A DNA stretch of 64,000 nt from a virus (IMGVR_UViG_3300008266_000014:64001-128000); one strand, 5' to 3'; positions 39,513 through 63,050 are shown, counted from the stretch's first letter. A program made the numbers and translations. The notes: a model not told the origin generated them from the sequence alone.

Positions 39513-40143
39513 CGGTTTAAATGATTTAGTACTGTTTAAGCATCACAATATCGACGGTATAGAAAAATGGATGTGGCCAAAATCAGATACTGGTCTTTGG
39601 GAAGGTCCTCTCTACGACTGGCCAAAACTAAAAGAAGGATTTTTAAGCCACGTAAAAAAATTTGATGTTGTCGTTCAGGCAGGTGGTGCTTGTGGAATGT
39701 ATCCAAAACTTTTAAGAAACCATTTTAACTATGTCTATACATTTGAACCGGACCCACTTAATTTTTATTGCCTTTCTCATAATTGTGACGATCCAAACAT
39801 AATTAAAATTAATGCAGCGCTTGGTGATCGTAATGAGATGATGGCAATATTGAACCATAACAAAGAAAATGTAGGAACTCATCGAGTAACAACTGATGGT
39901 GAGAGATACATTCCTATGTTCACTATTGATCAGCTAAATTTAACCGCATGTGATTATATTCAACTTGATTGTGAGACATTTGAAGAAAATGTTATTAGAG
40001 GAGCAATCAATACAATTCAAAAGTTTAAACCTGTAATAACCTTAGAAACATGCAGTCCGGGAATAGAGCAAATGCTTTTACCGCTAGGATACTCTTTCCG
40101 AGGTAGGTTCGGGCATATAGATCAGCTCCTTTCTGTAGATTAA
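39496..40143 (+). CDS. FkbM-family methyltransferase
   Basis: VVQAGGACG, TFEPD, AALG, QLDCE..E..V..GA..TI.K.KPVI. Confidence 0.85.
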   Translation: MESSNNGLNDLVLFKHHNIDGIEKWMWPKSDTGLWEGPLYDWPKLKEGFLSHVKKFDVVVQAGGACGMYPKLLRNHFNYVYTFEPDPLNFYCLSHNCDDPNIIKINAALGDRNEMMAILNHNKENVGTHRVTTDGERYIPMFTIDQLNLTACDYIQLDCETFEENVIRGAINTIQKFKPVITLETCSPGIEQMLLPLGYSFRGRFGHIDQLLSVD

Positions 40144-40164
40144 CCCACTTCGGTGGGTTTTTTT
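40142..40164 (+). terminator. Rho-independent terminator (cUUCGg loop)
   Basis: aacccac-ttcg-gtgggtt followed by Ts. Confidence 0.93.
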
Positions 40165-40178
40165 ACGAGCTAAATAAT

Positions 40179-40186
40179 TATAAATA
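40179..40186 (+). promoter_or_regulatory. T4 late promoter heading the internal-protein block
   Basis: TATAAATA immediately after the terminator. Confidence 0.8.
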
Positions 40187-40231
40187 CAAACAATGTGCAG
40201 TTAAACGGCCTAGGTAAACCTGCGGAAAAAT

Positions 40232-41764
40232 ATGAAAAAGACAAAAAAGAAACCACAAGACGTGGCACTCATCACTGGTAACCCTGCTGACAAGGTTGTT
40301 ATCAGTCCAGAAGACCCACCTAAAAAATTCCAGACGGAAGCTATCAAGCTGCTCAAAACAAAGCTGAATGCTCCGGAATTCAAATACTTGGCACCAACTG
40401 ATCGTGTTGAAATCGATAATCAGAATGTCGATAAGCAGGTAAAGCATATTCGTAAAGTCGTGACAAAGATCAGCACTCAGCCTGTCACAGAGCAAGAACT
40501 CAATGATATTTTCAGTGCAGTGAATGAAGCGGGGAGAATTGGATCAATACTTTCATCTCCAGTTCGTGCTGCAGGACTTGCTGGAAAAGCACTTACTGGT
40601 CTAGGAACAGCAGCAACATTCTTATCAACACCCCAGTCCGCAGCATTGTCGACCGCACTTGCTACCAAAGTTGTTTCTCAGAAAATGTCTGAGTTTGGTA
40701 AGTACCAGAAGAAAGCACCAACAACTACTACATCTAAACCTGCTCAGAAAGCTTCTCCACCAAAGCAGGCAGTAAAAACTAAACCAGAGCTGGAATACGA
40801 ACCACTGCCACCTAAGTTCCCTATTAAGGATGAGCCTAAGGTACAAGTTCCACAGGCAACTGCCGCAGTGTCGCAGAAACCTAGGGAAACCACAGTGATG
40901 GGTAAAAAGTATATCGAACCTCAGGCACCGGCTCCTGCAGCCCCTTCAAGACCACAGGGTGGAGGCAAGCAAAAAGGTCAACTGAGTCAGACTCCTGGTG
41001 CAGTAAAGAAAAGACAACAAAGAGCTCAGGCAAAAGGAACAGTTGTATCTCACAGAGAATGGGACTACGACACATACATCATTGAAAAGCTCGAGCAATC
41101 GCTTTTCAGGAAATCAGAAAGAAGTGGTGTTGATGCTGAGATTCTAAGTGATGTATTTGAAAGAGGGATGAATTCCTGGAATGAAGAGTCCACAATTTCA
41201 CAACAACAATTTGCAATGCAGCGTGTTAACTCTTTCATTGCAAAGGGAAAAACCTATTACAACGAAGATGCTGATCTACAAGAAAAGTCTGTTGTGATTG
41301 GTGGTAGAAGGCATCAGCAAGCTGGTGAAGGTCCAAGAGATATTGTAAAGAGAAAGCTATCAAAGCTGTTTGGTAAACATACTCTCATTAAGAAACCTCT
41401 CACACCAACTCAGAGAGTCAAAATTGCTTTGCAAAGACTAAAGAGAAAGTATGCTCAGAGCGCAGCAGCTGTCAAGTTCAAAAAAGGACTTGGGGAGTCC
41501 ATATCTAAAATCCAACAATCAATAGATGAAAGTTTCGTAGTAGATCGTGCTGCTGGTTATAGCACTACTTACACTGCTGCAGATCTTGGAATCAAGATTC
41601 AAGGTGGGTTTGCATTACATCCTTCTGTAGCAGAAGAGGGTGGAGCAGGCGACATTGGTACTACAAAACTGGTCAATAAATATAAGAAAGACACTCCAGG
41701 CGAAGCAGTGGAGCAATTGCAGCGAATGATTCGTGCAAAAAGAAAGGCGAACACTCAATGCTAG
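40232..41764 (+). CDS. Modular basic late protein (putative internal head protein)
   Basis: Lys/Pro-rich modules separated by VNE/IIE/LQE/IDE/AEE; SG.....L..VFERG..SW...QQFAMQRVNSFI module. Confidence 0.6.
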   Translation: MKKTKKKPQDVALITGNPADKVVISPEDPPKKFQTEAIKLLKTKLNAPEFKYLAPTDRVEIDNQNVDKQVKHIRKVVTKISTQPVTEQELNDIFSAVNEAGRIGSILSSPVRAAGLAGKALTGLGTAATFLSTPQSAALSTALATKVVSQKMSEFGKYQKKAPTTTTSKPAQKASPPKQAVKTKPELEYEPLPPKFPIKDEPKVQVPQATAAVSQKPRETTVMGKKYIEPQAPAPAAPSRPQGGGKQKGQLSQTPGAVKKRQQRAQAKGTVVSHREWDYDTYIIEKLEQSLFRKSERSGVDAEILSDVFERGMNSWNEESTISQQQFAMQRVNSFIAKGKTYYNEDADLQEKSVVIGGRRHQQAGEGPRDIVKRKLSKLFGKHTLIKKPLTPTQRVKIALQRLKRKYAQSAAAVKFKKGLGESISKIQQSIDESFVVDRAAGYSTTYTAADLGIKIQGGFALHPSVAEEGGAGDIGTTKLVNKYKKDTPGEAVEQLQRMIRAKRKANTQC

Positions 41765-42225
41765 GTGCCAACATTCATACTAAAGAACTTCATAGAGTTC
41801 TCAAGAAAGAAGGATGGCAGCTAACAAGAACATCAGGAGATCATGATGTATATACTCACCCTGAGGCAAAACATCATCTCTCCATTCCAAGACACAAGCA
41901 GCTTAAAGCTCCTTTAGTAGTGAAAGTGTTGAAGGCAATGAAAGTAAACGAAACCAAACTTCTTTCTTTTTCGCAATTTATTGCTGAAGCAGAATACCAA
42001 GGTCGTGATGTTCAATTGAACAAACCTATGGCAGGGGACGTCAAAAAGTCTAAGGTGTTTGTAAGAAATGCAGAAGGTAATGTCGTAAAAGTAAACTTTG
42101 GTGATAAAAACATGACGATCAAGAAAAACATTCCGGCTCGTCGTAGAAGTTTCAGAGCAAGACATAATTGTGATGATCCAGGACCAAAGACAAAAGCAAG
42201 GTATTGGAGCTGCAAAGCATGGTAA
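41758..42225 (+). CDS. HicA-like RNase domain fused to a conserved T4-like basic domain
   Basis: LKKEGWQLTRTSGDHDVYTHP..LSIPRH (HicA); linker LSFSQFIAE; KVNFGD...RRRSFRARHNCD...ARYWSC. Confidence 0.7.
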   Translation: MLGANIHTKELHRVLKKEGWQLTRTSGDHDVYTHPEAKHHLSIPRHKQLKAPLVVKVLKAMKVNETKLLSFSQFIAEAEYQGRDVQLNKPMAGDVKKSKVFVRNAEGNVVKVNFGDKNMTIKKNIPARRRSFRARHNCDDPGPKTKARYWSCKAW

Positions 42226-42647
42226 AAAGATATATTACATTTTTAACTGAGGCAACTAACTCCTGTCCTCGTGCAACATACGACCTTGCCATGAATCTGG
42301 AAAACAGACAAAAGGCAATTGATGAGTATGGGTATGGCCCTTTGAATCCTCTTGAGCCTTCATCGGACTTTTGGAATGAGAAGGCAGATATGTGGAATGT
42401 ATCTGTTAAGGATGCAAAGACAGCAAGATGTGGCAATTGTGCTGCGTTTGTTATTACAGACGATATGAGACAGTGTATCGTCAGTGGAAGAAAAGATGAA
42501 GATGATGAAAATGAGAACGATCACTTTGATGTGACTGTAGAGAAGGCAGATCTTGGGTACTGTAACATCTTACACTTTAAGTGTGCAGGAGAGAGAACTT
42601 GTGATGCATGGATCGCTGGTGGTCCAATAGATAATAAGGATGTGTAA
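42219..42647 (+). CDS. Cys-rich conserved phage protein
   Basis: YGPLNP, CGNCAAF, GYC..HFKCA..RTCDAW; leader MVKRYITFLTE. Confidence 0.7.
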   Translation: MVKRYITFLTEATNSCPRATYDLAMNLENRQKAIDEYGYGPLNPLEPSSDFWNEKADMWNVSVKDAKTARCGNCAAFVITDDMRQCIVSGRKDEDDENENDHFDVTVEKADLGYCNILHFKCAGERTCDAWIAGGPIDNKDV

Positions 42648-43090
42648 TGGAATCGTTAATTGAAGAAATGAAGGTAGTTCTTGCTGATACGTTTGCAATG
42701 TATTTGAAAGCACATAACTATCACTGGAATGTGGAGGGAAGTAACTTCCCTCAGTACCATGATTTTCTTGGCAACCTATATGAAGAGCTTCATGGTGCAG
42801 TAGATCCTATTGCAGAGCATATCAGAGCGCTAGACGCATATGCTCCTGGATCGTTAACAAGATTTAGAGAACTATCTTCTATCAGAGACAGCATGACCCC
42901 TCCTCCAACAATGGGAATGATATCAGAGCTATATGGAGATAACGAGATTGTTATGGCATCGCTAGTGAGAACATATAAATTAGCAGAGCAGGCGAATGAA
43001 ATTGGTCTGTCTAACTTTATTCAAGATAGATATGATATCCACAAGAAGCATGCATGGATGCTACGTTCTATACTTAAGAGAGCAGAATGA
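42647..43090 (+). CDS. dps: Dps / DNA-protecting ferritin-like protein
   Basis: KAHNYHWNVEG..F..H, D.IAEHIRAL, H.KHAWMLRS. Confidence 0.95.
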   Translation: MESLIEEMKVVLADTFAMYLKAHNYHWNVEGSNFPQYHDFLGNLYEELHGAVDPIAEHIRALDAYAPGSLTRFRELSSIRDSMTPPPTMGMISELYGDNEIVMASLVRTYKLAEQANEIGLSNFIQDRYDIHKKHAWMLRSILKRAE

Positions 43091-43695
43091 AAACAATAAG
43101 AAGACTTTTTGAGACCAGAAAGCAAGGGAAGAGGTATAGAACTGTTGAGAATCTCATCAGAGATGTTCTTCGCGGTAAGATCTTTGAGCAAAGAGAAAAG
43201 ATCGAGAAAGATCAAAGCGATCAGATTGTTGCTGGCACATACAAAACAAAGAACTTTGAGATGTGCCCTAGAGCACAAAAATTATTCACCCAGCTACCAA
43301 AAGGTACGAGTCCTAATGACGCAGAGCATGCTGCTATTCATCACGATGAGTTGTTTGCATTGGAAAAGCAGGCTGTGGCAAAGGAAAGAAGTACCAAGGC
43401 GGATGTTGAAGAAGCCAAACATCTTGTTGCAATGATTCGTCAGTTAGGTAAGACGATGAAGATCGAAGGTAAGATGGATTATCTTGACGATCACGTTGCA
43501 AAAATAGCTTCGTATATGCAAGATGAAAAAGAAACATATGATAACCCATCACCGGAAATGATGAAGAAGAGATTCACATCTCCTCCAATGTCAAGAACAA
43601 AAGAGCCTGATGATAGAGACATTGATAACTCAAAGTTTCTAGTTTCCAGAAACATTAAGGCACAAAGAAAACTTAAAATTATCGACGCAGACTAA
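43087..43695 (+). CDS. Hypothetical late protein
   Basis: Leader MKTIRRLFE; Y.TKNFEMCP.AQ module. Confidence 0.6.
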   Translation: MKTIRRLFETRKQGKRYRTVENLIRDVLRGKIFEQREKIEKDQSDQIVAGTYKTKNFEMCPRAQKLFTQLPKGTSPNDAEHAAIHHDELFALEKQAVAKERSTKADVEEAKHLVAMIRQLGKTMKIEGKMDYLDDHVAKIASYMQDEKETYDNPSPEMMKKRFTSPPMSRTKEPDDRDIDNSKFLVSRNIKAQRKLKIIDAD

Positions 43696-43696
43696 A

Positions 43697-45613
43697 ATGA
43701 AGAATCTCTACGAATCAATCAAACAAGTTATCTCTGAGAAAACTCTTACACCTTTTCAGCAAGAGTTTGCAAAGCAGATGAAGGAGAAGGGTGCTGGTAA
43801 GACCTTTACATGGCAAGATCCTAAGACAGGAAAGAGCACAGAAATCCTTTTGAAGTATAAAGAGGAACCAAAGCCTCAGGCTGCAGTTAAGCCAGAAGCA
43901 AAAAAAGAACCACCTAAGGTAGAGCCAGCAAAACCAGAAGTCAAAAAGCCAGAGCCAGAGGCTGGTGTTGATAAGAAGAAAAGCGATGAGCTGTTTGCCG
44001 ACATCAGAAAAGATGCGCAAGGTAAGTCACCAGAAGAGGTTCGTGCTGCTGCTCAGAAGGCATTAAAAGACACAGAAGCTGATCTTGCCAAGAAGGAAGG
44101 TCCAAAGCCAGCCGAACCAATTAAGACAGAACCACAGTCTGCAGAGATGGAAATCAAAACTGTAGACATGATTAAAGACAAAGAAAAGAATTCTAAAAAA
44201 ACTAACGAGGAAATTAAAATGTCAATAAACAAGAAATTTAATGTTTCTGACGCTCTTTACAGCTCTGTCATGGAAGTTATGGCAAAGTCTTCTGGGGGCA
44301 CAGTCCCAAAGAACGAAAAACAGAAGCAACTTGCTGCAAAGCATGGAGATCCAAATGTCATTACTCACGGTGATGTGTTGAAAGCACGTGGCGTAAAGAT
44401 GAAGGAAGAGACTGAACAAGTTGATGAACTGAGCACAAAGACTCTTTCTTCTTACGTCAAAAAACGTGGTGCCCAATTAAGAGGTGGGTATGAGGACTCG
44501 GAGAAAGTTAAAGGTATTAATGCTGCTCTTAGAAAGATTAAACAAAATTCAGTTAAAGAAGATATCGAGCAGGTTGATGAACTCTCGCGTGGCAAGTTAG
44601 TTGGATACATTGAGAAAGCATCAAAGACCAAGGGTTCAGAAGCAATTGCACGGGTTGCTGGTATCAAGAAAGCAGCTCAGAAGTTGAAAGACATCAAGAA
44701 GCAGTCGATGCAGTCTGAGGATGTTGAGCAGGTCGATGAGATTAGTAAAGGTACTCTAGGATCATACATTTCTAAATCTGCAGACAAGGCTCGTGAACAT
44801 GGTTTTTATGGTGGTGTTGCCTTCACTAAAGGAAAGCTGGGTCAAAGCGATTATCATGCAAAAAAAGAGTTGAAACGTACCACAGGAATCAACAAAGCAT
44901 TAGGTCGTCTAACAAAAGAAGAAGCTCTTGATGAAGCCAAGAAACTAATTTCTAAGCACGGTGAAGATCAGCCTATCTCTGCTAAGGTCTATAAAGACAC
45001 AGAGTGGAATGAGTATCAGGTTCATTTCTTCAAAGATGGTAAGCACATGGGAGAAGGCCCTGTTAGCTATCACGATGACAAAGAAGATGCTCAGAATACA
45101 GCAGATCATGCATTGGAAAAGATGAATAAGTCAAAAACCAATGCAGCCTCGATCGTTGCAGCTGCAAAGAAGCGTTCAGCTGGTGAACATGCAATGGAAG
45201 AGAGAATCATCGAAGGTACAATGAGAGGTGGTAAGTATGTTGATGATGCACCACGTCCAGGAACAAATGAAGTTCCAGTTCCTGACGAGGGGTACAGACC
45301 ACCAAAGTCTCAACCAAAGAAGCCAGTCAAATCTTCTGATACAACAAAGTTGAATGACGTGGAAGAATCAAAGAACATGGACACTCCTGGTAACAGCTAC
45401 GAGCATCAGTGTGCGATCCATGTAAGAAGTGAGTCATTTGGTGACGGTCGTACTATTACCACACAACATGCTGATCCAGACGAGTATGGTAACATTGCAT
45501 GGTACGATGTTATGTTTGAGCACGGAATCGAGAAGTTTGTTCCAACAAACTCACTTGAGATCCTTGTTTCTGAGTCGCATATGCATTCCAAGCGTAAGAA
45601 AAAAGGAATGTAA
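43697..45613 (+). CDS. Polyprotein-like repeat protein 1 (putative internal head protein)
   Basis: Three EQVDE(L/I)S repeats plus ALDE; C-terminal HQCAIHV..WYDVMFEHGIE module. Confidence 0.65.
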   Translation: MKNLYESIKQVISEKTLTPFQQEFAKQMKEKGAGKTFTWQDPKTGKSTEILLKYKEEPKPQAAVKPEAKKEPPKVEPAKPEVKKPEPEAGVDKKKSDELFADIRKDAQGKSPEEVRAAAQKALKDTEADLAKKEGPKPAEPIKTEPQSAEMEIKTVDMIKDKEKNSKKTNEEIKMSINKKFNVSDALYSSVMEVMAKSSGGTVPKNEKQKQLAAKHGDPNVITHGDVLKARGVKMKEETEQVDELSTKTLSSYVKKRGAQLRGGYEDSEKVKGINAALRKIKQNSVKEDIEQVDELSRGKLVGYIEKASKTKGSEAIARVAGIKKAAQKLKDIKKQSMQSEDVEQVDEISKGTLGSYISKSADKAREHGFYGGVAFTKGKLGQSDYHAKKELKRTTGINKALGRLTKEEALDEAKKLISKHGEDQPISAKVYKDTEWNEYQVHFFKDGKHMGEGPVSYHDDKEDAQNTADHALEKMNKSKTNAASIVAAAKKRSAGEHAMEERIIEGTMRGGKYVDDAPRPGTNEVPVPDEGYRPPKSQPKKPVKSSDTTKLNDVEESKNMDTPGNSYEHQCAIHVRSESFGDGRTITTQHADPDEYGNIAWYDVMFEHGIEKFVPTNSLEILVSESHMHSKRKKKGM

Positions 45614-48042
45614 TGAACGAAGATTTGCGTAACTGGTTCCGTGAGAAATGGGTTCGTATGGATACCAAAGGCAATATCAAAGGTGATTGTGCAAGAGAGG
45701 AAGGTGAAGGTAAACCCAAATGTCTTCCTCTTGCCAAAGCATCTAGTATGAGTAAAGAGAAACGTGCAGCAGCGGCAAGAAGAAAAAGAAGAGAAGATCC
45801 AGTTGCAGACAGACCAGGTAAAGGCGGCAAGCCAGTCAATGTTGCAACAGAAGAAGCAAGTACATCAGAGCTAATCAAAAAGAGTCATGAGAAACGAGGA
45901 GCTCCTGGTACACTGAAAGCAAAGATTAAAGGTCCAATCACTTTAGAGAAAGTAAGACAACTAAAGAACAGACCGAATGCAACCACACTAGATAAGAAAC
46001 AAGCTAACTTTTATATCAATATGCACACAGAAGAATATCTAGAAGAAAAGAATACACCAACCAATCCATCACTATGGAGCAAAGCAAAGTCACTTGCAAA
46101 ACAAAAGTTTGACGTGTATCCATCTGCATATGCAAATGGCTGGGCATCCAAATGGTACAAATCAAAAGGTGGTGGTTGGAAATCCGTACAAGAGGAAAGA
46201 CCAATGAAGACGTTAAGAGATATTACTGAAGGCGCAGATGAAGATCGTCCTTTCGAAATAGTTCATAAGAGTGGTAAAAGTATTGGACGATATAAAACCC
46301 TTAAAACTGCTCGTATGGTAGCAGATAAAAAAGATCTAGAATATGGAGCAATTGCTCATTCAGTAAGGAGAGTAAAACAAGATGATCAAAAGACTACTTC
46401 AGAAGGTGTTGTAGTTATGTCTGACTATAAACTAGACAAAAAAGGTCGTAAATACAAAGCTCACAGAAAAACAATAAGTCCTACGGCAATGGATGTCGCA
46501 AAAGGAATGAGGAAAGGTCCTCAATCAGAGCTTGGTGAGGCAGTCAACCCTTATCAAATTCAAGAAGAGGGTGACTATCCTCATGTAGGAACAGGTACAA
46601 GCAGAAGTATGCAGATGGCAAGAGATATCGCTACCAATAAAGCAAGATCATCGATGATGAAAGCAAAATATGGTGATGACGTATCTGGTAAAGAGATTCC
46701 TGCATATGATGAAGATAAACTAGATTTGAAGTCTGATGACAAAGGAAACTATGTTGCTACTGTAAAGATGCGTGAAAAGATTGCTGCTATGAAGGAAAGT
46801 ATCAATCCATATTACGAGGCTGTGAATATTCAGGGTCACAATATTAATGATGATGACTGGTATATTGTTCATAACAAAACCAAGAAGATAGTTAGTTCTG
46901 TTGGTGGAAAGAGTCATGTTGGAAAGCAAATATCATTCAATGCAGGATATTCCGGAAACAAAGCCAAGGTAGATGACGAGCACACTGCATATACAGGAAT
47001 GAAAGTAAAGAGTGTCATGGCAGAGGAAGTCGATCAAATTGACGAGGTTGGTAACACACCTGAAGGCAAAAAGACTCTCCAGGCATATATGTCAAGATCA
47101 ATAACCAATATGATGAAGAATCCAGAAAAAGGTTCGCAGAGAGAAAGAGGCATGCAAAGGGCAGCAGATCGTCTAGATAAAATTAGACAATCAGAAAGAA
47201 GTTCCAAACGTAAAGATACTATTATTAAAAAAGCTAAAGAAATTGATAATTTGATGTGGCAAAACGAAGAAGCTATTCAAGTTGATGAGATTTCCAAAAA
47301 GGCAGCTGCTTCATATATTTCCAAAGCAGCTAAAGATATTGCATATGATGCAAACTACGTTGGTTTTGTTGCTGGAAAGAAAACAAAAGGACATAATCCA
47401 ACTGAAGAATCTCCAAGAGAGTTAAAGCGTCATGCAGGTATTGCAAACGCATTAAAAAGACTTGTGAAGGAAGCAAGGATTGAGCAGGTTGATGAAATTA
47501 GCAAAAAGACTGTAAAGAGCTATCTTGAAAAGACTGTTGATCCTGTCTATGGTATTCCTAAAAGCAAGGAAAAGATTGCTCAAAGAATGCAAGGTATTTC
47601 CCGTGCTCATCAAAGAGTTGTAGGAAACAAACCTACAAGTGAAGAAGTAGAATTAGATGAGGCTTCTGATTACGCAATTGTAAGCACACACCACTTTCCA
47701 GATAAATCAATGGCTGTTAAAGTCAAAGACAAAGAATCGGGTAAGGAGTTTCATCATGTAGGTAGCCCTACACACTTGAATAACACACTGAAATCTAGAT
47801 ATAAAATTAACTATAGATTGGTGTGGGATGAAAGAAATGTCAAACCAGCAAATGAAGAGTTTGAACAAGTAGATGAGATCAGCAAAGCAACTGCCACAAG
47901 CTATGTAAGAAAGAAGCTATCTCAGATGGGTAAGCGTTCTGGTGATGCAACTCCAAAAGACTTTGAAAATCTTGCAAGAGCATATAAGCGTATGGGTGTT
48001 AGCGACAAAGCAATGAGAGAGAATGTGAATCAGATTGAAGAA
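44414..48042 (+). repeat. Dispersed coding repeat gaRcaRgtNgatgaR (EQVDE), about 7 copies plus degenerate ones
   Basis: Copies at about 44414, 44567, 44726, 47032, 47275, 47482, 47863; degenerate at about 44921, 47650, 48031. Confidence 0.8.
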
Positions 48043-48204
48043 GCATCGCTTGTCAAAGTATCTACAAATCCAGATGGATCAAGAACAGCTTCTGTTAAAA
48101 CTGACACCGGTAAAATTGTAAATCACACATTCAGAAAAGCGGCCTCTATCAATAAACTTTTGAAGAGACGATATAATATTTCAGGATCTATTCCAGAAAA
48201 CTAA
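45613..48204 (+). CDS. Polyprotein-like repeat protein 2 (putative internal head protein)
   Basis: Modules LRNWFREKWV..KPKCLP and PTNPSLWSKAK..YPSAYANGW..KGGGW; four (E/D/I)Q(V/I)DE repeats. Confidence 0.65.
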   Translation: MNEDLRNWFREKWVRMDTKGNIKGDCAREEGEGKPKCLPLAKASSMSKEKRAAAARRKRREDPVADRPGKGGKPVNVATEEASTSELIKKSHEKRGAPGTLKAKIKGPITLEKVRQLKNRPNATTLDKKQANFYINMHTEEYLEEKNTPTNPSLWSKAKSLAKQKFDVYPSAYANGWASKWYKSKGGGWKSVQEERPMKTLRDITEGADEDRPFEIVHKSGKSIGRYKTLKTARMVADKKDLEYGAIAHSVRRVKQDDQKTTSEGVVVMSDYKLDKKGRKYKAHRKTISPTAMDVAKGMRKGPQSELGEAVNPYQIQEEGDYPHVGTGTSRSMQMARDIATNKARSSMMKAKYGDDVSGKEIPAYDEDKLDLKSDDKGNYVATVKMREKIAAMKESINPYYEAVNIQGHNINDDDWYIVHNKTKKIVSSVGGKSHVGKQISFNAGYSGNKAKVDDEHTAYTGMKVKSVMAEEVDQIDEVGNTPEGKKTLQAYMSRSITNMMKNPEKGSQRERGMQRAADRLDKIRQSERSSKRKDTIIKKAKEIDNLMWQNEEAIQVDEISKKAAASYISKAAKDIAYDANYVGFVAGKKTKGHNPTEESPRELKRHAGIANALKRLVKEARIEQVDEISKKTVKSYLEKTVDPVYGIPKSKEKIAQRMQGISRAHQRVVGNKPTSEEVELDEASDYAIVSTHHFPDKSMAVKVKDKESGKEFHHVGSPTHLNNTLKSRYKINYRLVWDERNVKPANEEFEQVDEISKATATSYVRKKLSQMGKRSGDATPKDFENLARAYKRMGVSDKAMRENVNQIEEASLVKVSTNPDGSRTASVKTDTGKIVNHTFRKAASINKLLKRRYNISGSIPEN

Positions 48205-48205
48205 G

Positions 48206-48442
48206 ATGCCAATTATTCTTCAGAGCGATATTACCTTTAAAGAACCTCCGCAACCTCAAATTAGAGGAGGTGGTCAGGCTACTTCACTGCAATCACTTAG
48301 AGCAAGGTTAGAACCCAAAGTTGAAAAACCAAATGAGATCAAAAGAGAGTTCAAACCAAAGGTAAGAGACACGAATACCACCCTGATTCAATACAAAGAA
48401 TCTTCGTTTTTAAACGATATGCTGTCGAACAATAAAGAATAA
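48206..48442 (+). CDS. Hypothetical protein
   Basis: Compact packing. Confidence 0.5.
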   Translation: MPIILQSDITFKEPPQPQIRGGGQATSLQSLRARLEPKVEKPNEIKREFKPKVRDTNTTLIQYKESSFLNDMLSNNKE

Positions 48443-48475
48443 ATAATAAAACAAACCTAGTCAAGGAGTAAGAAA

Positions 48476-49333
48476 ATGCCATTATGGGGAAATCAAGACG
48501 CAGCCAGTAACTCAGTTATTTCTGCGCCTGCTCAATTTAAACAATCACCAAACACTGCAAATAGAGATGCTTTGTACGGTAATACTACACAAGATGCAGT
48601 AGTGGCTGGTCAGACAGTTGGTATGTACGCTGCTGATACCACAGAAATGAGTGTTGGATCAGGTCCAGTAGTTGATGCCGTGATTACTTTTGCTGGTTCT
48701 GGATATGGAGCAAATACAACTGTAGCATTCAGCTCCAATAACACAGGATCAAGTGCTGCTGCTAATGCTCAATCAAATGCTTCTGGTAGAATCACTGCTG
48801 TTAATCTAACAAACAATGGTTCTGGATATACTACATCACCAATTATCACGATTGCTGCTCCATCAGCTCAAACATTTGCTGGTAACACAACATCTGTTAC
48901 AGTTGGTAATACAACAAATACTGGTTGGATCACACTTGGAACCAACAGAGCATTTTTTGTTAACAACGACATCGTAACATACCTTGTTGCTGCAAGTAAT
49001 ACTGCTATTGGTGGTCTAACAAACAACACCACGTATGCTGTGCAAACAATTAACTCAACAGCTATTCAGTTGCTGGTTAGTGTTGGTGGTGCTTCTGTTA
49101 ACCTCTCTTCTGCTGAAACATCTGCGCAGGCTGGTCACTCAATTACTGGTGAAACAGCAACTGGTGCAGTTACTGTTGGTGGTGCAAAGAACAGAGGTAT
49201 CACTCACGCTGGATGGGTAATTAGAACTGAAGGTACTGGTAACCGTGCAGGACGTGTACAGTATGAAACATTGGTAGCTATGAGCTCCATCACTGGTGAT
49301 GGATCGGACGACAATCCACTACCTGACGCATAA
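48476..49333 (+). CDS. Virion structural protein (fibre/decoration-like)
   Basis: MPLWG N-terminus, Thr/Asn/Gly-rich, GSGY motifs, HAGWV..GRVQYETLVAM. Confidence 0.65.
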   Translation: MPLWGNQDAASNSVISAPAQFKQSPNTANRDALYGNTTQDAVVAGQTVGMYAADTTEMSVGSGPVVDAVITFAGSGYGANTTVAFSSNNTGSSAAANAQSNASGRITAVNLTNNGSGYTTSPIITIAAPSAQTFAGNTTSVTVGNTTNTGWITLGTNRAFFVNNDIVTYLVAASNTAIGGLTNNTTYAVQTINSTAIQLLVSVGGASVNLSSAETSAQAGHSITGETATGAVTVGGAKNRGITHAGWVIRTEGTGNRAGRVQYETLVAMSSITGDGSDDNPLPDA

Positions 49334-50952: not shown

Positions 50953-51206
50953 AATACTTAATTCCTTTAGTTTTACTATGTGGGTGTTCAACAACAGTTC
51001 CAGTTAAGGCAAAGTTCCCTGACGCTCCGGAACCTCTAATGGAAAAGTGTATACCTTTAATTAAACTTCAAGATGAAGCCAAACTAAGTGATGTCGCTAA
51101 GAATATGTCATATAACTATTCACTGTATCATGAGTGTTCAGTAAAGGTGGAAGCATGGCAGGAATGGTATACGAGCCAGAAGAAGATCTTTGATGAGGTC
51201 AAGTAA
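50949..51206 (+). CDS. Putative outer-membrane spanin (Rz1-like lipoprotein)
   Basis: Lipobox LCGC, Pro-rich FPDAPEPLMEKC, YHEC. Confidence 0.7.
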   Translation: MKYLIPLVLLCGCSTTVPVKAKFPDAPEPLMEKCIPLIKLQDEAKLSDVAKNMSYNYSLYHECSVKVEAWQEWYTSQKKIFDEVK

Positions 51207-52513
51207 TGGCTCAGTTCAGAACTGATCAAAACAAATTAGACTTTTCAAATAACAAAACACGATATGAAGTGTTCATGTTATCTGATAGGTTGACTCCATC
51301 TGGTAATCTTACAGATGCATTTGGTCGCCTAAGAATATCTCAACCCTTCACTCTTTTTGATAGCAGCCACAGATTTGCTGATAATGGACTCTGGTCAACT
51401 TCCAATACAGCTGGCGGCACATATGCTTTCGTCACTAATCAATCAACAATTGATATGACTGTCAATACAACAGCAGATGCTGAAGTAATAAGAGAAACGA
51501 CTAAAGTATTCTCATACCAGCCTGGTAAGTCTTTGTTAGTTATGAACACGTTTGCAATGAGTACCCCTAAGGCTAATTTAAGGCAGCGGGTTGGTTATTT
51601 TGGTGCACAGAATGGTGTATATTTAGAAAACGATGGTACGACGAATTATCTAGTACTTAGAAGTTACACGACAGGGGCGGTTGTTGAGACCCGTGCAGCA
51701 CAGACAAACTGGAACATCGATAAATTTGATGGTACTGGCTATTCAGGTCAAGGATCAGAACAAGCTCATACAACAGGCCTTGATGTTTCAAAAACTAACA
51801 TTCTTTGGTTTGATATAGAGTGGCTAGGCGTTGGTGATGTTAGATGTGGTTTCGTGGTTGATGGAAGATTCGTTACTGCCCATGTGTTTCATAACGATAA
51901 CAGGAACACAATTCCTTATATGACTACAGCATCGTTACCTTTGAGATATGAGATAAAGAACACAGGAACTACTGCCAGCTCAAGTACTCTGAAACAAATA
52001 TGTTCTACTGTAATTTCTGAAGGTGGATATGAATTGAGAGGCGCTCAACAAGGTGTAGGAAATGTAGTGACATCACCTGTTGATATTACCACTGCAGGAA
52101 CATATTACACACTTATTTCTCTCAGATTGAAATCAGCTCGTCTTGATGCAATAGCAGTTCTGACCGCTATATCTCTTTTAGCTGTTACAAATAACGCTGT
52201 GGTGAATTGGCAGATGAGATCTAATGGAACAACAACAGGAGGAACCTGGGTTAGTGCAGGTGCTGATTCTTCGGTTGAGTATAAATTAGATGGCGGAACT
52301 ATTACTGGAGGTCGTATCTTAGCACAAGGATACACCACAGCATCAACCCAAAGCTCCATTCCAGTAGATATTCTTAGAGAAGCACTTTTCAAGTTTCAAA
52401 TGGAAAGAAATGGATTAACTAATACTCCATTCGAATTGACATTATGTGCAACCAGTGATGTTAACGGTACGGATGTACATGCAGCATTGGACTGGGAAGA
52501 GATAACAAGATAA
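51206..52513 (+). CDS. Probable virion protein
   Basis: DAFGRLR.SQP.TLFDS, YQPGKS, DIEWLGVG; beta- and Thr-rich. Confidence 0.55.
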   Translation: MAQFRTDQNKLDFSNNKTRYEVFMLSDRLTPSGNLTDAFGRLRISQPFTLFDSSHRFADNGLWSTSNTAGGTYAFVTNQSTIDMTVNTTADAEVIRETTKVFSYQPGKSLLVMNTFAMSTPKANLRQRVGYFGAQNGVYLENDGTTNYLVLRSYTTGAVVETRAAQTNWNIDKFDGTGYSGQGSEQAHTTGLDVSKTNILWFDIEWLGVGDVRCGFVVDGRFVTAHVFHNDNRNTIPYMTTASLPLRYEIKNTGTTASSSTLKQICSTVISEGGYELRGAQQGVGNVVTSPVDITTAGTYYTLISLRLKSARLDAIAVLTAISLLAVTNNAVVNWQMRSNGTTTGGTWVSAGADSSVEYKLDGGTITGGRILAQGYTTASTQSSIPVDILREALFKFQMERNGLTNTPFELTLCATSDVNGTDVHAALDWEEITR

Positions 52514-60735: not shown

Positions 60736-60886
60736 AAAGAATCTTGCAAAACAACACGATGATGTGCTAATTGAAGAGCATAGAATCAAATTACTTACTT
60801 TATACGCTCAAATGGAGCATATAATAAAAGAGATAAATTATCATAAAGAAGTAATACAACTACTAGAAAAAGGCACGAAGAAATGA
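60698..60886 (+). CDS. Hypothetical protein
   Basis: GAGGAG SD; MAEILSF. Confidence 0.55.
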   Translation: MAEILSFQSKKDEKNLAKQHDDVLIEEHRIKLLTLYAQMEHIIKEINYHKEVIQLLEKGTKK

Positions 60887-61434
60887 AAAACTTTTCTCAT
60901 TTCATTGAGGAAAAAGATAATCTAGTACTAGAACCTCTTCCATACAAAGACACTGATTTAAAGGGTGTTATGAGTAAAGAGACGCTAGATTATCATTACA
61001 GCACACTTGCAGCAGGGTATGTAAAGAGATTCAATCAGGGAAAAGGTGATCCTAAGTTCAACACAGCAGGAGCATATCTTCACAACTTGTTCTTTCCTCA
61101 GTTGAAACCTCCAGTTGATGATAATATGCCAGAAGGATCCAGTGACGCTCTGATCAAAAGTGCTTTTGGGTCGTTTCAAAAGTTCCAAGAAGAGATCAAA
61201 AAAATTGCAATGAAGATTCAAGGATCGGGGTGGGTCTATATGGATACGTCTGGAAAAATTAAAACGATCGTAAACCACGAGGTTGTTCCAAACATCGCAC
61301 TGATTATTGATTGGTGGGAGCATGCCTGGGCTCTTGACTACCAAGCTGATAAGGAAAAGTATCTCGATAACATCTGGAAAGTTATCGACTGGAAAGTTGT
61401 CAATGACAGAATAAATAATGAAAGATCTACTTAA
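60883..61434 (+). CDS. sod: Fe/Mn superoxide dismutase with capsid-targeting-like leader
   Basis: LPY, DYHY, LHNLFF, GSGW, DWWEHA; leader MKNFSHFIEE. Confidence 0.9.
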   Translation: MKNFSHFIEEKDNLVLEPLPYKDTDLKGVMSKETLDYHYSTLAAGYVKRFNQGKGDPKFNTAGAYLHNLFFPQLKPPVDDNMPEGSSDALIKSAFGSFQKFQEEIKKIAMKIQGSGWVYMDTSGKIKTIVNHEVVPNIALIIDWWEHAWALDYQADKEKYLDNIWKVIDWKVVNDRINNERST

Positions 61435-61896: not shown

Positions 61897-62424
61897 ATGT
61901 TTGATAATGATTCTATTGGATTCCAGAGGTTTTATGATGTTCTACCCAACAAAGATCATAATGAGTGTTATCAAAAATTAATTAATGGTTCTTGGAATTT
62001 TTCTGGGTGGTCGAATGCAGACGATCCAACAAGATTCTGGAACATGCCTTTACAGCACGATGATTTTTTTACATCATACTTCTTAAACGTGATATGTAGC
62101 ACAACAGGTCGAAAATTTTACACTGAAAGAGTTTACGCTAACGGACAAACTCACGGACAGTGTGGTAGCTTGCATACAGATCACATAGAAGGTAGAGAAG
62201 ACGTATCGTATACTTTTTTATACTACGCAAATCCTGAGTGGTATTCAGTGTGGGGTGGAGGTACTGCATTCTGGGCTTCAAGGAATCAGCATAAAGTAGA
62301 AGAGTACATACCGAACTCTGCAGTTATTTTCAAAGGTAATACTCTTCATGCAGGACTAGAACCAACTAGACATTGCTACGGTCTAAGGATTACTGTGGCA
62401 TACAAACTAATAGAGATTAAATGA
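61897..62424 (+). CDS. 2OG-Fe(II) oxygenase
   Basis: RVYANGQTHG, HTD, LYYANPEW..WGGGT, H, LRITVAYK. Confidence 0.87.
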   Translation: MFDNDSIGFQRFYDVLPNKDHNECYQKLINGSWNFSGWSNADDPTRFWNMPLQHDDFFTSYFLNVICSTTGRKFYTERVYANGQTHGQCGSLHTDHIEGREDVSYTFLYYANPEWYSVWGGGTAFWASRNQHKVEEYIPNSAVIFKGNTLHAGLEPTRHCYGLRITVAYKLIEIK

Positions 62425-63050
62425 ACCCTCTTTTTTCTATTACAGCAAACAAATTTGACGAGAACCTGAATCTAACAAAAAGAGTCAGCAATGATTACTT
62501 TACCAATCAATACATATCGTACTTCGATAATGATGGGTTTGAGCTTTCTTATCTGGAACAAGAATTTTACAGAGAGCATAATATTATCCTGACAGATATT
62601 CTCAACCATCGTAGTAATCAACTTCCATGGGTTGAGTGTAGTAGTGAAGATTTCAAGATAGACCATAGTACAATATCTCAGCGTTGGTCTTTTGACGGCG
62701 AAGCAAGATGTCAACTACTTAATCATGTTCACAAATTTCCTGAGCTTCTTAAATATCTAAATCTCAGACCAAAGTGGGGCTTGGACTTTGCACTAGAATA
62801 CTACAAAAAAGATAGGTTTGTTGAGGTAATGCACTTTGAGATGGACTACGATAGCTACGATCAAGCAGTACAAGCAAAAAGATATTTCCAAAATAAAATT
62901 CTTGAAACCGACTGGTACCTATTTGTTAGTATGCTTTTATCATGTGAGGAAGATTGGATTCATTTGAAGGGCATCGAACAAAACGACTGGAAAGCGAGAA
63001 TGTGGGGGCTGGATAAAGCAGAAGTAACACTTAAAACTTGGGGTCATTAA
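62421..63050 (+). CDS. Conserved hypothetical protein
   Basis: YFDNDGFEL..LEQ, GEA..QL, PKWGLDFAL. Confidence 0.65.
   Translation: MNPLFSITANKFDENLNLTKRVSNDYFTNQYISYFDNDGFELSYLEQEFYREHNIILTDILNHRSNQLPWVECSSEDFKIDHSTISQRWSFDGEARCQLLNHVHKFPELLKYLNLRPKWGLDFALEYYKKDRFVEVMHFEMDYDSYDQAVQAKRYFQNKILETDWYLFVSMLLSCEEDWIHLKGIEQNDWKARMWGLDKAEVTLKTWGH

Follow-up and report, generated by a model that had tools for sequence, protein, structure and literature searches.

We examined a 64,000-nucleotide stretch of viral DNA (IMGVR_UViG_3300008266_000014:64001-128000; hereafter the window, which is bases 64001-128000 of a single 155,530-bp contig), in which two adjacent open reading frames (ORFs), ORF638 and ORF863, encode long proteins built from repeated small domains. 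We classify the source phage as a T4-like myophage; its family-B DNA polymerase is about 50% identical to cyanomyophage gp43, it also encodes a DnaB-type helicase and ribonucleotide reductase genes, and nearly all of its genes lie on one strand. The two ORFs and the elements within them, in window coordinates, are as follows:

43697-45613, + strand: ORF638 (638 amino acids), overlapping ORF863 by one base
43697-43738, + strand: N-terminal leader of ORF638, 14 amino acids, ending I-S-E; conserved in orthologues as M-K-x-[IL]-Y-E-S-...-[IV]-[ML]-E
44399-44551, + strand: hairpin module M1 (domain E value 2.8e-20)
44552-44710, + strand: hairpin module M2, 94% identical to a module of a sibling phage
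44711-44923, + strand: hairpin module M3, with a long loop (alignment and profile)
45613-48204, + strand: ORF863 (863 amino acids)
46204-46230, + strand: internal leader-like peptide M-K-T-L-R-D-I-T-E (ORF863 residues 198-206)
47017-47196, + strand: hairpin module M4, with a divergent start (alignment and profile)
47260-47472, + strand: hairpin module M5, with a long loop (alignment and profile)
47467-47646, + strand: hairpin module M6 (alignment and profile)
47662-47847, + strand: beta-beta-beta-alpha module h, entered after L-D-E, 78% identical to a domain of the related protein P0006
47848-48042, + strand: hairpin module M7 (alignment and profile)
48043-48201, + strand: beta-beta-beta-alpha module i, entered after I-E-E

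ORF638 consists, in order, of the leader, domain a, a low-complexity P/K/E stretch, domain c, modules M1-M2-M3, domain d (phrog_7884), domain e and the C-terminal domain f (phrog_22379), and ORF863 of domains A (phrog_23735), B, C (DUF5872-like), D, E, F and G, modules M4-M5-M6, h, M7 and i. The original prediction, made from the DNA alone, had described two adjacent ORFs carrying about seven copies of an acidic linker, each followed by a basic module. The motif Q-[VI]-D-E-[ILV] indeed occurs seven times in the six-frame translation of the window, always in frame and only in these proteins (three copies in ORF638 and four in ORF863). All seven modules align as helix-loop-helix units of about 50-80 amino acids, each opened by one copy of the motif, with an acidic start, [IL]-S-K-x-T-L-x-S-Y-x-x-K, a loop of variable length and (K/R)-x-x-G-I-x-x-A-x-x-R-L. 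The fourth copy, M4 (ORF863 residues 469-548), is divergent, and a profile of the seven copies found no additional module in the whole 155.5-kb genome. A second kind of module had been reported to occur twice, and the pair is real: residues 684-745 and 811-863 of ORF863 share 33% identity over 46 amino acids (pairwise E 4e-4), and AlphaFold gives both a common beta-beta-beta-alpha layout with a predicted local distance difference test score (pLDDT) of 70-85. Further boundary motifs proposed at the outset (Y-L-E-E, I-T-E, I-Q-E-E, L-D-E and I-E-E) are present where homology to other proteins starts or stops. Pfam reported no enzyme or peptidase domain on either protein; the DUF5872 match (ORF863 residues 149-187) lies below the curated cut-off (21.4 bits vs 27.5), and DUF6321 was not reported for ORF863, appearing only on other proteins of related loci (a second ORF of L075 and the C-terminus of the L005 mosaic). 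Domain C also holds a 140-nucleotide island (46045-46184, + strand) with 84-85% DNA identity to cyanophages Sf-CH8 and Sf-CH5; elsewhere in the region there was no DNA match, and the island may be either a recently exchanged mini-domain or a sign of unusually strong constraint.

When the seven-copy profile was compared with 1.84 billion representative proteins, it matched 4,256 clusters with an E value of at most 1e-3 and 1,461 when the limit was set at 1e-10; single proteins carried as many as 10 copies. We regard the hairpin module as a large uncatalogued family. Sequence searches of Pfam, PHROGs and the PDB returned no functional family for the module or for most of the other domains, a Foldseek comparison with the PDB gave no hit for the module model and nothing above noise for residues 469-863 of ORF863, and the ESM Atlas gave no informative neighbour. 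In the AlphaFold model of M3, made from 29 module sequences, a helix at positions 3-29 is followed by a loop and a second helix at 47-70 (mean pLDDT 69). The acidic stretch, first taken for a separate linker, is conserved with the module and is predicted by this model to be the start of helix 1, not a free linker. At the level of whole proteins, predicted template modelling scores (pTM) are very low, at 0.17 for ORF863 in the ESM Atlas and 0.25 for a single-sequence AlphaFold model of residues 469-863, which contains separate confident sub-domains. We also considered one continuous solenoid, which these scores and the separate sub-domains disfavour; the low pTM would fit beads on a string better, with the reservation that single-sequence models are weak evidence.

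Loops differ between the paralogous modules of the window, whose borders conform to one motif across the family. In a border logo compiled from 936 module instances in 222 proteins, the consensus start is K-E-E-V-E-Q-[ILV]-D-E followed by [LI]-S-K-K-T-L-G-S-Y-[IV]-K-K-A, with Glu at P1 in 100% of instances, I, L or V at P3 in 100% and Asp at P2 in 89%. The prohead protease gp21 of T4 cleaves after Glu in L/I-x-E, and Asp at P1 blocks its processing (PMC9026906); judged by sequence, the invariant [ILV]-x-E border fits this rule. The phage encodes its own gp21, as had been supposed (genome ORF 62001-62648; Peptidase_S77, PF03420, at 2.4e-37 and phrog_207 at 1.6e-73), and Peptidase_S77 is likewise encoded in four of four module-bearing contigs that are at least 86% complete. 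One alternative is that these are ordinary multidomain repeat proteins that stay uncleaved and act at full length, perhaps by binding DNA or protein as arrays inside infected cells. The acidic stretch together with L-S-K-K-T-L-x-S-Y would then be no more than the conserved helix 1 of a helical-hairpin repeat, and the likeness of I-D-E to a gp21 site would be incidental. We consider this unlikely, as it leaves unexplained why the border residue is Glu, and never Asp, in all 936 instances.

Within the modules, the same motif is strongly avoided. Compared with counts expected from shuffling, [ILV]-x-E was found 9 times in 823 module interiors where 205 were expected (ratio 0.04), and 10 times in 877 variable loops totalling 27,491 residues where 113 were expected (ratio 0.09, an 11-fold depletion). 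The same loops contained [ILV]-x-D 237 times (227 expected, ratio 1.04), [ILV]-E 143 times (120 expected, ratio 1.19) and E-x-[ILV] 124 times (112 expected, ratio 1.10). Loss of the Glu motif from unconserved loops that keep its Asp counterpart is a further difficulty for proteins that are never cut. The other 97 large ORFs of the genome have 407 occurrences of [ILV]-x-E against 358 expected (ratio 1.14), and two proteins are clearly enriched: the scaffold gp22 (17 vs 7.7, ratio 2.2) and a 331-residue protein encoded between the portal and protease genes (12 vs 6.1, ratio 2.0). These counts indirectly support the view that selection treats the borders as cleavage sites, with modules apparently kept resistant to a protease that is specific for Glu and requires a hydrophobic P3, and scaffolds apparently selected for destruction. 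The acidic motif could instead be a docking or recognition peptide for some other partner (portal, terminase, chaperone or host factor), or be cut by a different protease, and conservation of E-E-V-E-Q upstream of the minimal site, which T4 gp21 specificity does not explain, would suit such a role. We think this very improbable, however, given that the Glu-specific avoidance closely matches gp21 specificity and that neither a candidate partner nor another protease turned up when the operon and neighbouring genes were scanned with Pfam and PHROG.

Cutting at the border sites is predicted to yield six pieces from ORF638 and ten from ORF863, within the range of the 15-20 small basic peptides first proposed; 12 of the 16 fragments have an isoelectric point of 9.1-10.7 and a net charge of +3 to +12. 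The predicted hairpin units would be 51-81 amino acids long, each retaining the acidic tail of the next joint.

Gene context in related phages ties the modules to the head genes. In this genome, the head genes lie just upstream of the window in the order portal, a 78-residue ORF, the 331-residue ORF, a 113-residue ORF, gp21 protease, gp22 and gp23. Orthologues of the 331-residue gene in related IMG/VR loci carry modules: one in L170 and L171, three in L175 (an 800-residue protein), two in L166 and one in L184. More broadly, the gene in the portal-gp21 slot of L170, L175, L166, L184 and L172 combines one to three modules with stretches resembling domains c and d of ORF638, and in L075 a homologue of the N-terminal domains of ORF863 lies between portal and protease. 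A nine-module protein, P0083, has an N-terminal domain matching gene 070 of phiM12, which is itself located between portal and gp21. The reading as uncleaved proteins does not account for such placement. It suits another alternative, in which the proteins are core or scaffold material of the prohead whose gp21-cut pieces mostly leave the head before DNA packaging, with a role in assembly or size determination instead of delivery, as this is the slot in which T4 encodes gp67 and gp68 (PMC9026906); the highly charged helical composition is also like that of scaffold proteins. ORF638 and ORF863 themselves lie elsewhere, 43-50 kb downstream of the portal-gp21 slot amid replication and nucleotide-metabolism genes. 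The contrast between purged modules and an enriched gp22 suggests that modules are made to survive as intact folded units, and rapid turnover of cassettes, described below, is seldom expected of assembly components but characteristic of genes in conflict; we therefore hold the core or scaffold reading to be quite improbable. The genes for T4 internal proteins are also poorly conserved among T4 relatives (PMC9026906).

A second contextual line comes from cyanophages P-HM1 and P-TIM68, in which similar mosaics adjoin the cytidylyltransferase family T4-GC190. The P-TIM68 mosaic (AIR93496, 1006 amino acids) contains one hairpin module, and that of P-HM1 (family T4-GC534) the C-terminal domain of ORF638. 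T4-GC190 was detected in purified S-SM1 virions (PMC3037559); any link of the mosaics themselves to the virion would be by neighbourhood only. In relatives, these small domains are also found joined to a cytidylyltransferase, a Zeta-like kinase or a HicA domain; in L005, the first two share one protein of 1210 amino acids with ORF863-type domains. We found no paper tying capsid-targeting sequences to cyanophages or describing these domains, and a paper on S-SCSM2R virions says nothing about these proteins.

N-terminal leaders give a further point of likeness to T4. The pattern M-x-x-[FY]-x-x-[FIL]-[LI]-x-E follows the shape of the T4 capsid-targeting sequence (PMC8442874; PMC9026906), in which targeting depends on positions 4 and 7 and processing on positions 8 and 10 (PMC9026906). 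It begins 68 of the 949 distinct ORFs in related IMG/VR loci. Several mini-domains found behind such leaders recur inside mosaics, namely a Cys-Trp-x-Gly-Tyr-Lys domain, an Ala-Trp-Gln-Arg-Lys-Glu-Gly domain and the hairpin module, and it is hard to see why domains that bear T4-type leaders when single should do so if their chained forms work uncleaved. Where leader-type domains other than the module lie within mosaics (218 cases), Glu occupies position -1 in 45% (background about 10%) and a hydrophobic residue position -3 in 42% (background about 19%). Leader-bearing ORFs of 200-450 amino acids are depleted in [ILV]-x-E as well (0.56 vs 1.25 for other ORFs of the same loci). Inside ORF863, the peptide M-K-T-L-R-D-I-T-E looks like the start of a once-separate gene that was fused in frame; P0005 begins with a similar leader immediately before its homologue of ORF863 domain E.

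Leaders of this kind were also seen on other genes. A Fe/Mn superoxide dismutase in the window (60883-61434, + strand; PF02777 at 6e-23 and PF00081 at 5e-8) has a 15-residue N-terminal extension, the first ten residues of which end in I-E-E and match the T4 capsid-targeting pattern. Only one other OR​F of the genome satisfies the strict form of the pattern, which makes this superoxide dismutase a candidate for loading into the capsid. Outside the window, at genome positions 153226-155477 (L085 3227-5478), a 121-residue Phage_L5_gp82-like ORF and a 605-residue ORF of no family each follow a AATAAATA motif and have leader-like N-termini, and may belong to the same cargo set. In two related loci, L176 (689-7791) and L180 (795-6813), runs of four to six consecutive genes, nearly all starting with a 10-residue T4-like leader, adjoin a homologue of a virion structural protein of the window (51206-52513), and one of these genes has five hairpin modules.

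Comparison of module number and order across relatives had been set beforehand as a test of the prediction, and we found that both vary, so the invariance that would have spoken against it is absent. A sibling phage (155,059-bp contig), compared at the protein level, has orthologues of both ORF638 and ORF863. Between domain c (83% identical) and domain d, the sibling has a different first module followed by M3 (87%) and M2 (94%), with the order of M2 and M3 swapped relative to the window, and about 225 extra residues precede its C-terminal domain. The sequence V-K-E-D-I-E-Q-V-D-E precedes M2 in the window and M3 in the sibling, which places an exchange point in the acidic joint. In closer IMG/VR relatives, 0-3 modules separate domain c from domain f, both domains being 82-84% identical in the nearest of these phages; the range becomes 0-4 when the window and the sibling are counted with them. 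Likewise, domains E, F and G, modules M5, M6 and M7, and h and i of ORF863 recur in other orders in P0004, P0005 and P0006. These protein comparisons support a variation of module number and order as cassettes between close relatives.

How the cassettes move is less in line with what had been proposed. The DNA coding for the joints of the seven copies is only 42-71% identical, with exact runs of 5-15 nucleotides, and the repeat is thus kept as protein and not as DNA. Recombination driven by a DNA-level linker repeat within this genome was rejected, exact runs of at most 15 nucleotides being too short and the copies too diverged for it alone. The loops had been called hypervariable; they differ between paralogous modules, but orthologous modules are 87-94% identical, which led us to regard the loops as variable and to discard hypermutation.

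Taken with the border and avoidance statistics, the reading that we favour, at a probability of roughly 60%, takes ORF638 and ORF863 for polyproteins that are expressed late and belong inside the prohead, a polyprotein version of the T4 internal-protein system. Both would be produced from the late operon described below and would enter the core of the assembling prohead, ORF638 by its N-terminal leader and ORF863 by some other route or by binding to other core proteins. There the gp21-type serine protease (Peptidase_S77) would cut after Glu in [ILV]-x-E at every domain border, releasing about 16 small proteins, among them seven basic helix-loop-helix modules, each with [LI]-S-K at its start and an acidic tail left at its end. 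With cutting motifs purged from their interiors, the modules would survive intact, stay with the packaged DNA and probably be ejected with it, and the module set would form an array of cassettes that differs in number and order from one related phage to the next. What we infer from the evidence above comprises targeting, cleavage, head retention and ejection, together with whatever the pieces may do; the DNA-condensing and anti-defence roles named in the original prediction are pure inference.

Several observations weigh against this reading, and some of them favour the uncleaved repeat protein. ORF863 starts with M-N-E-D-L-R and has no targeting leader, although homologues in L036-L038 do have one; the leader of ORF638, at 14 residues, is longer than that of T4 and only loosely T4-like. 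Total [ILV]-x-E counts in ORF638 and ORF863 are at chance (11 and 13 vs 10.0 and 10.2), so that the placement of the motif, not its number, is non-random; this too is what uncleaved proteins would show. Depletion within the window (9 vs 16.6) is weak, the fragment borders having been chosen after the sites were seen, and the strongest statistics come from the family at large and not from ORF638 and ORF863. The loops are poor in [ILV]-x-x-E too (0.37), an effect that lies outside the simple rule and is unexplained. The conserved segment K-E-E-V-E-Q-I-D-E is much longer than a gp21 site requires and may therefore have another role, and the proposed scissile bond lies within helix 1 of the AlphaFold model, although pLDDT there is 58-76; an acidic stretch modelled as part of a helix and conserved well beyond a protease site would be natural in proteins that are not cut. 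Finally, T4-GC71 and T4-GC191, the neighbouring cyanophage families, carry no proteomics flag (PMC3037559).

The setting of the two ORFs bears on the timing of their expression. Upstream of them on the same strand, we identified the following features:

40142-40166, + strand: hairpin resembling an intrinsic terminator, with a run of T, closing the upstream unit (7-bp stem with four GC pairs, T7 tail)
40179-40186, + strand: TATAAATA, a T4-type late-promoter motif, 45 nucleotides 5' of the ORF510 ATG
40232-41764, + strand: ORF510, which opens the operon and encodes a basic mosaic protein; a DUF5824-like stretch in it is common to phage 'cytidyltransferase' mosaics
41758-42225, + strand: 155-residue protein with an N-terminal HicA-toxin domain and a phrog_7595 domain
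42204-42647, + strand: small Cys-rich ORF; from the ATG at 42219 it has an 11-residue leader ending L-T-E
42647-43090, + strand: Dps/ferritin-like protein (PF00210, 6e-21)
43087-43695, + strand: ORF202, a basic protein whose N-terminus ends L-F-E at residue 9

The copy of TATAAATA at 40179 directly follows the terminator-like hairpin and is one of only four in the window; the same octamer is found 5' of gp23, gp22 and the tail sheath gene gp18 in this genome. From 40179 to 48204 the genes abut or overlap, and a scan of the + strand over this interval found no terminator among the operon genes. The motif is probably the start of a late operon running to 48204, and with a late-promoter motif behind a terminator and contiguous genes uninterrupted by a + strand terminator, the earlier description of ORF638 and ORF863 as late ORFs is reasonable. 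Among the operon genes, HicA is also found in relatives fused into module-bearing mosaics of 1146 and 1431 amino acids (P0047 and P0067) and into an ORF of L044. Homologues of the Dps/ferritin-like protein (51-52% identical) occur in the equivalent cluster of L005 and L081, and why a gene for a DNA-binding, iron-storing protein should adjoin putative head cargo is unexplained. Directly 3' of ORF863, a 285-residue Ser/Thr/Asn/Gly-rich protein (48438-49333, + strand) follows a AATAAATA motif, has weak matches to head-closure and baseplate PHROGs, and is syntenic beside mosaics in many relatives.

Among known systems, the closest parallel is that of the T4 internal proteins IPI, IPII, IPIII and Alt, which are gp21-processed and carry a capsid-targeting sequence. 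Both systems comprise small, mostly basic, poorly conserved proteins of T4-type phages, a genome-encoded Peptidase_S77, and genes scattered outside the head cluster with rapid turnover between relatives; leaders of about ten residues ending in [LI]-x-E occur here on ORFs of related loci, and ORF638 has its 14-residue one. Here, in contrast, the units are chained into proteins of 638 and 863 amino acids with the cutting motif wherever two units meet, one kind of unit is a hairpin that is repeated and has thousands of relatives, ORF863 is leaderless, and the system is known from sequence alone; no Pfam, PHROG or PDB match pointed to homology of ORF638 or ORF863 to IPI, IPII, IPIII or Alt. The T4 core proteins gp22, gp67 and gp68 are similar in being cut by gp21 at several L/I-x-E sites and in the position of genes 67 and 68, shared with modules in relatives, but they are degraded to small peptides that leave the head, whereas the modules, from which internal sites are largely absent, should last as units of 50-80 amino acids. 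The inner-body and ejection proteins of phiKZ, 201phi2-1 and SPN3US offer a case in which a protease related to gp21 processes many head-internal proteins at short motifs, cleaving after Glu. The phiKZ-type prohead protease cleaves after (S/A)-x-E, and paralogous families are packed with the DNA. These phages belong to another lineage with a different P3 preference, and their cleavage mostly strips propeptides instead of separating a chain of modules. Polyvalent proteins of phages and conjugative elements join 2-15 unrelated domains per polypeptide and are predicted to be packaged, delivered with DNA and processed (Iyer et al. 2017; PMC5512222). They resemble ORF638 and ORF863 in having unrelated domains in one chain, shuffled domain content and predicted delivery and processing, but carry recognisable enzymes (ART, MuF, primase and others) with an embedded metallopeptidase, whereas here the domains are tiny, have no assigned function and would be cut in trans by the head maturation protease.

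If the polyprotein reading is true, capsid targeting and gp21 processing as known from T4 would extend beyond a few internal proteins and would serve the abundant T4-like phages of aquatic habitats as a modular means of delivery in general. It would assign a role to thousands of 'hypothetical' repeat proteins and would help to explain the enzymes and unknown proteins that recur in purified virions. More tentatively, and with some doubt on our part, the module and its companion mini-domains might constitute a very large, fast-shuffling library of capsid-delivered small proteins in these phages, an anti-defence or host-takeover arsenal for which the head protease would be the universal release enzyme and [ILV]-x-E joints the plug-in standard for adding any domain. 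A large pool of small injected proteins, in which anti-defence or host-takeover activity might be sought, would then be predicted.

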